From an uncultured Actinomycetes bacterium (GTDB lineage Bacteria > Actinomycetota > Thermoleophilia > Gaiellales > JALYLC01): a DNA stretch of 64,000 bases. Numbering within the stretch: the stretch's first letter is position 1; each line of letters begins with the position of its first letter. Both the position numbers and the translations under genes were made by a program. The DNA lies in NCBI GenBank assembly GCA_963713435.1, contig CAVQLU010000003.1, forward strand, positions 524 to 64,523, in the 5' to 3' direction. Below are positions 20,843 through 45,523 of this stretch, piece after piece. The notes under the pieces are model-generated. The model saw only the letters and a list, made by a program, of their open reading frames with translations. It was not told where the DNA came from and ran no database searches.

Positions 20843-20952
20843 ACGACGGATGATCGGTCATCCGGGCCGCGCATGTGCCCGCCAGGCCCAGAAGCCCAAC
20901 CGCTCCAGACGCCACGCCCATTCAGTCAGAGCTTCTGTAGTGAGCCCGCGTG

Positions 20953-21953
20953 CTAGTGAATGATCCACACGGGGCTGCCGACGCGCACGTGCACGAACAG
21001 CCACTCGGCGTCCGGGATGCGCATGCGGATGCAGCCGTGCGACGCGCTGTAGCCGATCGAGGCGGCGTCGGGCGTGCCGTGCAGGCCGACGCCGGGCGCC
21101 GAGATGCCCATCCAGCGCGTGCCGAGCGGGTTGCCCGGCCCCGGCGGCACGGGCTTCTCCCCCGCTGCCCAGGCCGAGTTCGGCGGGTACCACCACGGAT
21201 TGAGCTGCTTCTCGACGATCTCGAAGGCGCCGGTCGGCGTCGGGTACTGCGACTGCCCGACGGCCACGTCGAGCATGCGCACCTTCTCGCCTCGCTTGGA
21301 GTAGAGCGAGACGCGGTGCAGCGTGCGGTCGACCACGAGCGCCGGCGGCAGCGAGCGCACGGTCACCGTCGGGCACGACGACCTTCGTCGGCAGCGTGAC
21401 CGGCCCGCGATCGGGCTGCTTCAGGGCTGCGGCGACGAGCGCCGTGGCGGCGAGCACGTCGAGACGGCGACCCCACTGGTCGGGCACGACGTGCGGAACG
21501 CTCTTGACCAGCTCGAAGCGGGCATCGGTCGGATCGGTGCGCACCTGCGGGGCGAGCGAGCGAATCCAGTTGCGCAAGCGCGTTGCCGGAGATGCGCGTC
21601 ACGACCGGGATGTCCGTGCCGGGCACGACGGCCGCGGTGCGGCCCGCTGCGAGCGCTGACCTTGCAGCGGCCGGTCGATGTAGGCGTGCAGCCCGAGCTG
21701 CGACGCCGAGGCAGTCCACTGCTGGTCGCCGAGCTTGACGGTGATCGTGCCGAGCACGCTCTGGCTGATCCAGGGCGCGGCCTGCGCGGCCGTCATGCCG
21801 CCGACGGCGACGCCGCCGACGCTCACGCCCGGGCGCGATGACGCCGTCGGGAACGGCGGCCGTACCGTCATCGGAAGCGGCGTAGGCTGCACCCAGCGGC
21901 ACGCCGAGAGCGAGCACCGCGGCGACGACGAGAAAGCGGCGCGACCAGAGCAT
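20953..21953 (-). CDS. L,D-transpeptidase (YkuD) with N-terminal PG-binding-like region (frameshifted)
   Basis: VAVG..YPTPTG, NPLGTRWM, GLHGT..SIGYSASHGCIRM; signal peptide at 21953. Confidence 0.85.
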
Positions 21954-42781: not shown

Positions 42782-43058
42782 CGGCGCGGCCCCCGTGGGA
42801 GCGCGCGGTCAGTCTAACGGGCATCCTGCGCCGTGACGACTGCATACGCTCAACCGGGGAGAGGCACCGTCCCTCCCCGGCTTCGCGTGGTCGGTATCGA
42901 CGTCTTCGGCGAGGCGCCGGCGCCGGCCCGCGGCAACGTGGAAGCCGCCGGTCTCGCCGGCCGGGTCGAGCTCGAAGGCGCGCGGGAGGCCGAGCGCACC
43001 TGGGCGGGGCCCGTCCGCCTGTTCGCGGGCCGCCGCCCCGTCTGAACGAGGATCAAGG

Positions 43059-43129
43059 CTGGGGCGCCAGGATTCGAACCTGGGATCACGGGACCAAAGC
43101 CCGTTGCCTTACCGCTTGGCCACGCCCCA
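43059..43129 (-). tRNA. tRNA-Gln (TTG)
   Basis: TGGGGCG/CGCCCCA acceptor stem, anticodon arm ACGGG-CTTTGGT-CCCGT, T-loop GGTTCGAATCC; full CCA not encoded. Confidence 0.97.
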
Positions 43130-43140
43130 CCGGCCCGCGC

Positions 43141-43146
43141 AGTCTA
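43141..43146 (-). promoter_or_regulatory. -10 hexamer (TAGACT) for tRNA-Gln
   Basis: TANNNT 11 nt upstream of the tRNA 5' end; the same hexamer precedes dinG, glmU and metG. Confidence 0.6.
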
Positions 43147-43430
43147 AGAGCTCGGTTCGGGATGACCGCAGTGCCTGGAGCGGCTGGATCGGCCTGCAGC
43201 CGATCACCAGGGCACCCATACAGCTTGCGAAGCTTCGATCGACTCCGAGAGTGCCCCGGTGATTGACTTCCGTCCGACCCGGGCGCTCGCTCGCTGCGCG
43301 AGGCGGGCCCGGGGCTTCGCAGGAACGCCGGCCGGCTCTTGAAAGGGTTCCAACCGGATCTGCGAGCCGGCCGGCGCCCCTGCTCGCTCCAACCACCCCA
43401 GACCCACACCCTCATCCCGAAACGAGCTCT
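43147..43430. mobile_element. Non-coding structured element with 19-bp terminal inverted repeats (MITE-like or ncRNA)
   Basis: AGAGCTCGGTTCGGGATGA (43147-43165) vs TCATCCCGAAACGAGCTCT (43412-43430), 18/19 complementary; several internal hairpins; no credible ORF. Confidence 0.6.
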
Positions 43431-43833
43431 ACGAACGGCTGCGATCGGCGAGCAGCCGCATCAGCAGCACGAGCAGCACCACGACGGCGATCAGGATGGT
43501 GAAGAAGATCGTCACGGGGATCGCGACCACGACCAGGGCGAGCAGGCCCTGGGCGAACGCGACGATCCAGGCGGCCTCGCGCAACATGCCCGGCTTGAGC
43601 TGGCGCCCGACGAAGTAGTAGACGGCCACGGCCAGCAGCCCGAAGAGCACGATCGTGATCGTCGAGGCTCCCCAGAACGCGACTGCCAGGAATTCCAGAG
43701 CTGCCAGCGCAGCGGCGAGCAGCACGCGGCGCTCGCGCAGTCTCCCGTGGAGGCCCGTCGGACCGGGCGGCGGCACCCGTCGCCCGTCGCGATCGACGAC
43801 CACCACGTCTTCAGGCCCGACCTGGTAGCTCAT
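43429..43833 (-). CDS. Small multi-pass membrane protein
   Basis: About four hydrophobic helices; TAGGAT 6 nt before ATG. Confidence 0.75.
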   Translation of the reverse strand: MSYQVGPEDVVVVDRDGRRVPPPGPTGLHGRLRERRVLLAAALAALEFLAVAFWGASTITIVLFGLLAVAVYYFVGRQLKPGMLREAAWIVAFAQGLLALVVVAIPVTIFFTILIAVVVLLVLLMRLLADRSRS

Positions 43834-44697
43834 GGCTTGATCCTAGCGCCAGCGCCGCCCTGCCAGAGGCGGGAGATCGCCGTCCAGGCCACATTGCCCG
43901 CAAGCCGCTCGTACGCCGCTTGCGCCCCACCCTCGCTCGCGAACAGGCCGAAGACGGCGGAGCCGGATCCGCTCACGGCCGCGGCCCTCGCACCCTGCGC
44001 GAGCAGCTGCCCGCGCAGCGCTGCCGTGGGCGGGCAGAGCTCCTCGGCCGCAGGCCCAAGGTCGTTCTCGATCAGGGACGCCAGCAGCTCGACGTCAGCC
44101 GTCGCGAAGGGCTCGGCGCTCAGGGCAGCAGCGCGCTCACCCGCTCCCTCGCTCGGCCGGTAGCGCGCGTAGACATCCGCCGTGGCGAGCGCCTGACCCG
44201 GCCAGGCTGCGACGATCCAGCCCTGCGCCCCGAGCGGGCAGGCCTCGAGCCGCTCGCCGCGGCCCCGCGCCAGTGCCGATTCGAGGCCTGAGGCGAAGAA
44301 CGGGACGTCGGAGCCCACCGCAGCGGCGAGCTCGACCAGCTCGCCGTCAGCCAGCGGCGCGGGCAGCGTCGCGTTGGCCAGCTGCAGGGCGGCGCCCGCA
44401 TCGGCGCTCCCGCCGCCGAGCCCGGCGCCGACGGGCGCGAGCTTGTGGATCCGCACGCGCCAGCCCCCGGCGTGAGCCGGCACGCGCTGCGAGCAGCTCG
44501 AGCGCGCGCGTGACGAGCGTGTCGCCGCCGGTCAGGCCGGCCGCCTCGACGTGCGTGACCGCCGCGGGCTCGAGCTCGACGGTGTCGCCGGCGGACAGTC
44601 GCGCGAGCACCGTCGCGAGCTCGTGATAGCCATCTGCTCGGCGGGGGCCGACACGCAGGCTGAGATTGATCTTGACGCCGGCGATCACGTCAGGCAC
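43830..44697 (-). CDS. ispE: 4-diphosphocytidyl-2-C-methyl-D-erythritol kinase (frameshift ~44480)
   Basis: KINLSL..DGYHEL, PVGAGLGGGSADA, GSDVPFF, VSGSGS. Confidence 0.92.
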
Positions 44698-45523
44698 CGG
44701 CTCGCGCCAGGCGCGCGAAGGCCTCCGCGGGCAACGCCTCGGCGCGCGCGCCCGGATCGACGCCGGCGAGCGCGCAGGCTGCGTCCACGGCGCGGCGATC
44801 CTCGCGCCACCCGGCCAGCGTGAGCGCGTTCGCGATCGTCTTGCGGCGATACGCGAAGGCGGCACGCACGGTCGCCACGATCTGCGGCCAGTCGCCGGCC
44901 AGGCCCTTCCACTCGGCGCGGCGCGCGAACGCGACGAGCGTGGAGTCGACGTTCGGCACGGGGACGAAGACGCTGCGCGAGACGGCGTGGCGCCCGCTCG
45001 GCTCGAGCGCCAGTGCGCAGAGCACGCTCGGCCCCCCGTAGAGCGCGTCGCCCGGCCCGGCGGTGAGCCGCTCTGCGATCTCGCGCTGGACGAGCACGCA
45101 CCAGCGCCGCACCCCGGGGAGACCGCCGATGGAGTCGAGTAGGAGCGGCGCCGCGACGTGGTAGGGCAGGTTGGCGACGAAGGCCGTCGGCGGCGGCTCG
45201 AAGGCGTCCAGCGCCATGCGCATGGCGTCGCCCCAGTGCACGGTCACGTTGCTCGAGCCCTCCAGCGTGCGCGTCAGCGCCTCCTCGAGGCGCCGGTCGA
45301 TCTCGACCGCGTGCACGTGCGCGCAGAGACCTGCCAGGTGCGCTGTCAGCGTGCCGACACCGGCGCCGATCTCGAGGGCGACGTCATCCGGCTCGAGCGC
45401 CGCGAGGCGCTCGATCACGCCCAGCAGGTTGTCGTCGACGAGGAAGTGCTGCCCGAGTTCCTTGTCCGGCCGCAGCCCGAGCTCGGCCAGGCGCGCGAGC
45501 GTGACCTGGCGCGGCGTGCTCAC
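44690..45523 (-). CDS. rsmA: 16S rRNA dimethyladenosine transferase
   Basis: LGQHFL, LEIGAGVG, VANLPY, VQREIAERL, RRKT. Confidence 0.95.
   Translation of the reverse strand: MSTPRQVTLARLAELGLRPDKELGQHFLVDDNLLGVIERLAALEPDDVALEIGAGVGTLTAHLAGLCAHVHAVEIDRRLEEALTRTLEGSSNVTVHWGDAMRMALDAFEPPPTAFVANLPYHVAAPLLLDSIGGLPGVRRWCVLVQREIAERLTAGPGDALYGGPSVLCALALEPSGRHAVSRSVFVPVPNVDSTLVAFARRAEWKGLAGDWPQIVATVRAAFAYRRKTIANALTLAGWREDRRAVDAACALAGVDPGARAEALPAEAFARLARAGA

Follow-up and report, generated by a model that had tools for sequence, protein, structure and literature searches.

The 64,000-nt stretch analysed here (the window), from an uncultured bacterium of the order Gaiellales, contains a strongly folded sequence with inverted repeats at both ends, lodged between the tRNA-Gln(TTG) gene (43057..43129, minus strand) and the stop codon of a gene for a 134-aa hydrophobic protein (43429..43833, minus strand). 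The question raised by this locus is whether such a sequence is an RNA gene, a leader of the tRNA or a mobile element, the initial annotation having hesitated between a stand-alone IS110/IS1111-type bridge or seek RNA, an IS5-like MITE and an undescribed ncRNA. The sequence is a mobile, non-autonomous element, member of a non-coding, recently mobile family scattered in the genomes of one soil actinobacterial family. The family is new, but the type of genomic parasite to which it belongs is already known, and it is not a new RNA gene. Judging from the sequence of its ends, the element is likely mobilized in trans, by a DDE transposase from the IS5-family clade that has the same ends. No description of the family was found in Rfam or in the literature searched (ISfinder, subscription journals and supplements being outside its scope). 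The hosts of the family are abundant, mostly uncultured soil actinobacteria.

Structure of the element and of its insertion locus

The MITE core is 282 bp long (43148..43429, the minus strand being the better-folding one), as delimited by its ends, its fold and the net insertion of 285 bp, and is bounded by 18-bp terminal inverted repeats (TIRs). The left TIR (43148..43165, plus strand), of the type GAG...ATGA found in an IS5 clade, was recognised by repeat search and by an end profile, and the outer base of the right TIR (43412..43429, minus strand) gives the G of the TAG stop codon of the host gene. In the 19-nt form in which the repeats had been described (43147-43165 and 43412-43430), the arms are 95% complementary and 246 nt apart. 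The two long ORFs crossing the element have a flat codon GC (0.69/0.69/0.68 and 0.71/0.67/0.71), versus a GC3 of 0.90-0.93 in the two neighbouring genes; the element is short and has no coding capacity, so that the description of inverted repeats around a non-coding stretch was correct. All nine motifs quoted in that description are indeed present at the minus-strand positions given for them. The element is flanked by TAA on the left (43145..43147, plus strand) and by TAC on the right (43430..43432, plus strand, from comparison with empty alleles); since the target reads TAC in empty alleles, the duplication is not exact. The TCTA reported at both ends does occur twice, but is not a clean 4-bp duplication, since its right copy overlaps the TIR.

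The insertion leaves the host signals in place. Two flank bases, together with the outer base of the element, restore the host TAG, and the TAGACT hexamer in front of tRNA-Gln (43141..43146, minus strand) is unchanged, only the sequence upstream of it being replaced. This hexamer is kept in the six same-genus empty alleles (6/6) and is likely the -10 box of the tRNA gene, a role that a sigma-70 promoter scan of 43000-43600 did not pick up, no promoter-like site being detected in that interval. A terminator scan of the same interval gave a single terminator-like site, located outside the element. The start context CAGTCTA is common to two further copies of the host genome. The 134-aa protein has 93 homologues, most of them also of 134 aa and one labelled Gaiellales, and matched no NCBIfam family.

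Two other observations concern the window. The gene upstream (43830-44700), presumably ispE-like according to its translation, is seemingly split into two frames near 44480, possibly through an assembly error. A truncated copy of the same family, with one end and about 25 bp (20896-20936), lies just past the stop codon of an ORF on the minus strand (20953-21366).

Empty sites, copies and distribution

The site is empty in all of the six same-genus genomes, which were read base by base. In these alleles the tRNA is directly followed by ...CAGTCTACGA... and then by the upstream gene, and the TAG stop codon and the TAGACT hexamer overlap, as had been foreseen for a removal of the element. A contig from soil run X1 joins 43142 to 43428 and skips 285 bases (depth 2.6, with 30 letters on the short side), while contigs from runs X10 and X2 carry at the same site an element cut to a short stub (43154/43167-43429). 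The net insertion at the window site is thus 285 bp, i.e. 282 + 3.

Twenty loci of the host genome (G000) match the TIR profile, seven with both ends and 13 as fragments, versus none in a reversed-genome control. Across the family, 60 delimited copies were retained from 10 genomes, out of 69 rows from which six without a second end, two longer than 400 bp and one mis-delimited (C5) were dropped; eight of the 60 come from an unpublished genome (G003); the remaining 52 lead to the same conclusions, to the extent visible in the data for each copy. A further 19 copies come from metagenomes (22 rows, less one mis-delimited and two same-site repeats, L278 being counted once). Of the 55 copies found in other genomes, 14 have both of their flanks close together in G000, with no element in between; these interspecies empty sites are too diverged to fix the length of the duplication, and two of them (L060 and L077) are fitted better by the absence of a duplication than by one of 3 bp. 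The copies and empty sites that the initial annotation proposed to look for in the genome and its relatives were therefore both found, in agreement with its reading as a non-autonomous mobile element, and the empty sites exclude a fixed ncRNA.

The range of the family rests on BLAST and nhmmer. Strong BLAST matches (E < 1e-12) among 301 genomes of the order were obtained in 12 of the 14 family genomes and in G128; nhmmer confirmed copies in G128 and G271, which belong to two other families of the order, and found none behind the hits in G116 and G131. None of 400 other genomes sampled from the phylum matched at E 1e-6.

Insertion sites and target duplication

In the 60 genome copies (10 genomes) the core starts with GA[G/A/C] and finishes with [C/T/G]TC, between flanks of the consensus C-T-N-A | ... 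| T-N-A/G-G. At the window site the target TAC has become TAA | TAC, with a net gain of 3. An exact 3-bp duplication is present in 13 of the 60 genome copies and four of the 19 metagenome copies, versus 36 of 46 elements of the IS5 clade discussed below. Young copies are also inexact, one of four copies of G009 that are 93-98% alike having an exact duplication. Of the exact rules tried (3-bp; TA; A...T ends plus a 1-bp duplication), none accounts for more than 29 of the 60. The base beside the left end is A in 50/60 and the base beside the right end is T in 54/60, which exceeds the positions that they should copy. In the IS5-clade elements L161, L163, L167, L210, L217 and L222, the two flanks are TTA and TAA, with a mismatch at the central base of the duplication.

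The stop codon of a long GC3-rich ORF is adjoined by 37 of the 60 copies in a raw count, and the stop-codon contacts are split 20:20 between the two ends of the element.

A probable partner among IS5-family elements

A search of transposase loci led to L091 (G012), a 905-bp IS5 element in two frames that matches NF033580, has the TSD TTA and bears ends of the MITE type; a short MITE copy adjoins it. The 80 best relatives of L091 were taken, the closest being from Thermoleophilia and Gaiellales; 46 were delimited and 34 of the 80 IS loci could not be. A profile built from the MITE ends alone gave means of 18.0 and 18.8 bits on the ends of the 46 delimited relatives, versus 20.1 for the MITE ends themselves, with a best-of-270 null of -0.7 +/- 3.8 (maximum 13.0), and at most 4.8 for the ends of 14 other IS elements of the same genomes. 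Between the right TIR of the window copy and the best IS ends, 15 of 19 positions are identical, and the MITE has TIR types that parallel those found in the IS5 clade, an argument for selection on the ends by the transposase. These matches support the proposal of an IS5-like MITE. The target of the clade is TNA, which we take to be listed by ISfinder as the target for IS1031.

The cognate transposase was not detected in G000 (55% complete) by protein query, family search or tblastn, nor was it found in the copy-rich G009 (86%) or the single-contig G010 (81%). NF033580 matched four of the 14 family genomes, two of them above the cut-off, and only one of the 17 matching loci (G012:C189) carries both cognate ends, G003:C174 having one cognate right-end fragment. 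No autonomous element enclosing the inner core was seen among the 80 IS5 loci, and the copy-bearing loci, including 42 from metagenomes, gave no transposase match.

Two candidates were discarded. A second NF033580-type IS beside a copy (L094) has unrelated ends, which score -1.5 and 0.3, and a weak tblastn hit in G000 (C14, E 0.001) has printed frames which, read by eye, show no transposase. It was also observed that copies are often next to an IS5 element or a remnant copy, or nested within one (L091:2298-2469, L094:130-410, L059, L080, L058 and L142).

Conserved predicted fold and strand polarity

The minus strand of the window copy has a predicted fold of -189.9 kcal/mol (z -10.9, none of 200 shuffles being as good), and the plus strand one of -154.1 kcal/mol (z -6.6). 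An RNAalifold consensus, calculated on an alignment (A1) of 49 copies of 240-290 bp, predicts a junction whose unpaired bases are invariant (CGA motifs), from which a long closing helix and three inner helices emerge. On the minus strand of the window copy, the subterminal helix P1 is formed by a G-U-rich 5' arm (43385..43411) and a 3' arm (43166..43191), both placed by consensus fold and covariation. The inner helices, placed by the consensus fold, are P2 (43319..43383), with 20-bp arms, an inner internal loop and a small hairpin, P3 (43278..43313), whose length differs among subfamilies, and the outer part of P4 (43203..43263), the distal sequence of which differs among subfamilies. The motifs TGGAGCG and CGCTCCA, previously thought to close the fold together, are both present, but in the consensus fold of the family TGGAGCG (43391-43385) pairs with CGATCCA (43191-43185).

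Covariation, assessed by our own count and on a tree, was detected throughout the fold: 51 of 75 pairs have changes on both sides, a value reached by none of 500 shuffles; the consensus pairs are paired at 94.9%, versus 35-40% in slid controls; and the double changes on the tree amount to 18, 11, 9 and 18 for P1-sub, P2, P3 and P4, versus 1.4, 1.0, 1.6 and 2.3 with permuted partners. The junction bases are invariant while the TIRs vary. In 54 of 55 copies the better fold is that of the minus strand, and DNA energy parameters favour the same strand as RNA parameters. The G-U count was redone with a strand-symmetric alignment of the arms, because the consensus structure had been predicted on the minus strand, and gave G-U in 179 distinct contexts versus A-C in 40, a difference whose p-value is overstated since the copies are related. 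The corresponding values are 22 versus 15 for P4 alone and 4 versus 8 for the IS5 TIR pair used as control. The view that the sequence is structured and that G-U pairs favour the minus strand is thus supported at the level of a conserved fold. According to these models, the four-way fold is unusually well conserved and strand-polar, and the G-U excess on one strand in a symmetric count suggests that the polarity belongs to the element and not to a host gene.

This polarity is likely due to selection acting on a single-stranded form. Other processes can leave similar traces: template switching in inverted repeats can make covariation, and strand-biased mutation can make a G-T excess, both without selection on RNA. 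Contigs from RNA libraries of four runs cover parts of the element; they are unstranded and often 5-12% different, and cannot show transcription. In Rfam searches, only the tRNA reached the gathering score in the window region, the best other hit being gntR-DTE (24.2 versus 63.6 bits), and 10 other copies gave no match, in line with the earlier remark that RNase P, tmRNA and SRP signatures are lacking. Covariation screens for new RNA motifs will pick up elements like this MITE family. As its fold is strand-polar although the copies meet host genes from either end, the family is also a clean test case for the question of whether the folds of MITEs are selected or are a by-product.

IS110-family insertions in the core

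In four loci, representing two MITE subfamilies, an IS110-family element is inserted at one fixed spot of P2, with a shared core TCT: L332:560-2126, L329:1277-1400 and L331:640-752 in the unpublished G003, and L239:1440-1567 on a public metagenome contig, both junctions being visible in L332 only. The corresponding site of the window copy (43334..43343, plus strand; TCT at 43337-43339) is empty. The inserting element is about 1.49 kb long, with 10-bp subterminal repeats and a downstream non-coding region of 297 nt, a layout described for IS1111 in PMC11187229; insertion of an IS1111 element into a MITE is likewise reported, for QMITE2, in PMC10969869. Relatives of at least 90% were found only in G003 among the 301 genomes of the order. 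The 297-nt region contains two short matches to the target (7 and 6 nt), on opposite sides of a stem, which fit a guide pairing with the target, although this sequence match is only suggestive. With the IS110 element sitting in the core as its target, the link is the reverse of the one first proposed. The IS110-family element targeting the MITE would constitute a natural guide-target pair.

Apparent end exchange, hybrids and minimal derivatives

Ends and interiors appear to be exchanged between copies: several TIR types are found on the same core, and five of 79 copies bear two different types. A contig from run X3 covering the insertion site of the window copy (window 43163-44091) has 23 listed differences inside the element versus two over some 660 bases of flank. 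Mixed-end copies could stem from tandem insertions that later collapsed.

Minimal derivatives of about 50-170 bp, which keep both ends and have lost most or all of the core, were observed in G000 at C1:128974, C5:124748-124824, C5:79247, C7:352551, C9:344555 and C10:26212-26376; ends can thus persist without the fold. Hybrids were also observed, in which MITE ends surround a RAYT-associated hairpin repeat: the second copy of L065 (L065b) and L073, both in G001 and of 157-161 bp, and L079 in G006, of 527 bp with about ten tandem units. In G000, two Y1 (RAYT-like) genes (L298, C6:24949; L305, C7:399884) lie amid clusters of palindromic repeats unrelated to the element.

Mode of mobilization and alternative explanations

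In the mechanism that we propose, the transposase would bind the 18-19-bp ends and cut the target with a 3-nt stagger. The copies surviving at stop codons and -10-like hexamers would occupy tolerated TA/TNA sites, because in a 72%-GC genome the non-coding TA/TNA sites are mostly there and because the insertion leaves both signals intact. More tentatively, donor-flank bases may be carried to the new site and repaired as a heteroduplex, which would account for the inexact duplications; as these also occur, at a lower rate, in the IS clade, they bear on how IS427/IS1031-type transposases handle donor flanks. Recombination between copies might exchange ends and interiors and so lead to mixed TIR types on one core, and the inner fold might be kept as a single-stranded structure, likely an RNA, whose polarity would be set by the element. 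A bolder and rather unlikely extension is that spread depends on the four-way junction as a polar single strand. In its folded form this strand, RNA or ssDNA, would work in transposition or end exchange, would allow one core to take on the ends of any IS5-clade transposase that comes by, and would leave inexact duplications; the most constrained loop of the core would in turn have become a site that an RNA-guided IS110-family recombinase is programmed to attack, the MITE being a parasite with a parasite of its own.

Some of the same data could be explained by spread through a single-stranded intermediate of fixed polarity, an RNA or ssDNA made by the element, with the four-way junction as substrate or scaffold and the IS5-like ends serving only for integration or being relics. 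The polar G-U excess, the even distribution of stop-codon contacts between the ends (20:20), the invariant unpaired junction bases beside variable TIRs, the inexact duplications and the copy-rich genomes devoid of an IS5 match would all suit such a route, which we nevertheless consider improbable: no enzyme gene is enclosed with the core in any locus examined, 43000-43600 contains no promoter-like site, and in its TIR types the element follows the IS5 clade. HUH enzymes act on ssDNA hairpins, and movement of a REP/TIR-type repeat by an HUH (Y1) tyrosine transposase, RAYT or TIRYT, would fit both the strand polarity and the poor duplications. Two Y1 genes are present in G000, PF01797 matched eight of the 14 family genomes, and the hybrids L065b, L073 and L079 carry RAYT-type hairpins within MITE ends. 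However, none of 15 Y1 loci has core or TIR hits, the two Y1 loci of G000 are flanked by a different repeat, and G009 and G010 are copy-rich yet without a PF01797 match. GGGGWSAS, given as the TIRYT motif in PMC3733652, is found in four of 60 copies and is absent from the window copy, which leaves this second route very unlikely.

It is highly improbable that the element is an IS110/IS1111 bridge or seek RNA standing alone, or what a deletion has left of such an IS. This reading could invoke a structured non-coding sequence, IS110 genes in eight of the 14 family genomes and a core beside an IS110 gene in four of 30 loci, neighbours that the initial annotation had suggested looking for. In three of these four, though, the IS110 is inserted inside the core, which is then a split target; the subterminal repeats and the 297-nt downstream non-coding region there are those of the IS110 itself. 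At the fourth locus (L316) the copy is intact and lies some 490 bp upstream of the IS110 gene. In two partly overlapping sets of 30 IS110 loci the core is never the end of the IS itself, and a core touching an IS110 is a split target, apart from the intact L316 copy. The repeats of the element are terminal and reach the ends set by the empty sites, and are not subterminal; for IS1111, PMC11187229 describes sTIRs with 7/3-bp extensions. The strong fold and the position just upstream of a tRNA could likewise evoke an ncRNA fixed in the chromosome or a leader regulating tRNA-Gln, but with the site empty in the six same-genus genomes, copies at unrelated loci and no Rfam match except the tRNA, this is scarcely credible, and the undescribed ncRNA gene first considered is not supported either. 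Mobilization in trans by an IS5-family transposase thus remains the preferred reading.

Comparison with known systems

As described in PMC3184786 and PMC10969869, bacterial MITEs such as Correia/NEMIS, RUP, Nezha, Chunjie and QMITE2 share with the element a short, non-coding sequence, IS-like TIRs, multiple intergenic copies, filled and empty sites and a stable predicted fold. In contrast with them, the element is GC-rich and not AT-rich, its duplications are mostly inexact, even in young copies, several TIR types occur on one core, and its interior does not align to the partner IS, so that it is not a simple internal deletion. With the IS427 and IS1031 groups of the IS5 family (NF033580; L091 clade) it shares ends of the form GA[A/G]...AATGA, 18-19-bp TIRs, the TNA target and a 3-bp stagger; L091 itself has two frames, as IS427 according to PMC3281130, and a 3-nt target, as IS1031 in PMC2516522. 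Unlike these groups, it has no transposase, and its long subterminal pairing and three inner helices are absent from the IS.

The element also resembles bcr1 of the Bacillus cereus group, a mobile small repeat in which compensatory changes keep a branched fold. According to PMC3184786, bcr1 is 155 bp long, has 5-bp direct repeats in each case and is transcribed, whereas the element has IS5-type TIRs and a predicted four-way junction. Like QMITE2 of Coxiella and the REP or attC targets of the IS1111 family, it offers a conserved repeat site taken by an IS110-family element, here in four loci (PMC10969869 and PMC11187229); its target, however, is the internal-loop site GGCTCTTGAA and not a GTAG REP, with a putative guide pairing of two 6-7-nt matches. 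Finally, TIRtrons and REPINs (TIRYT, RAYT) are, like the element, palindromic intergenic repeats of the same genomes, from which it differs in lying beside none of the 15 Y1 loci and in missing GGGGWSAS in 56 of 60 copies.
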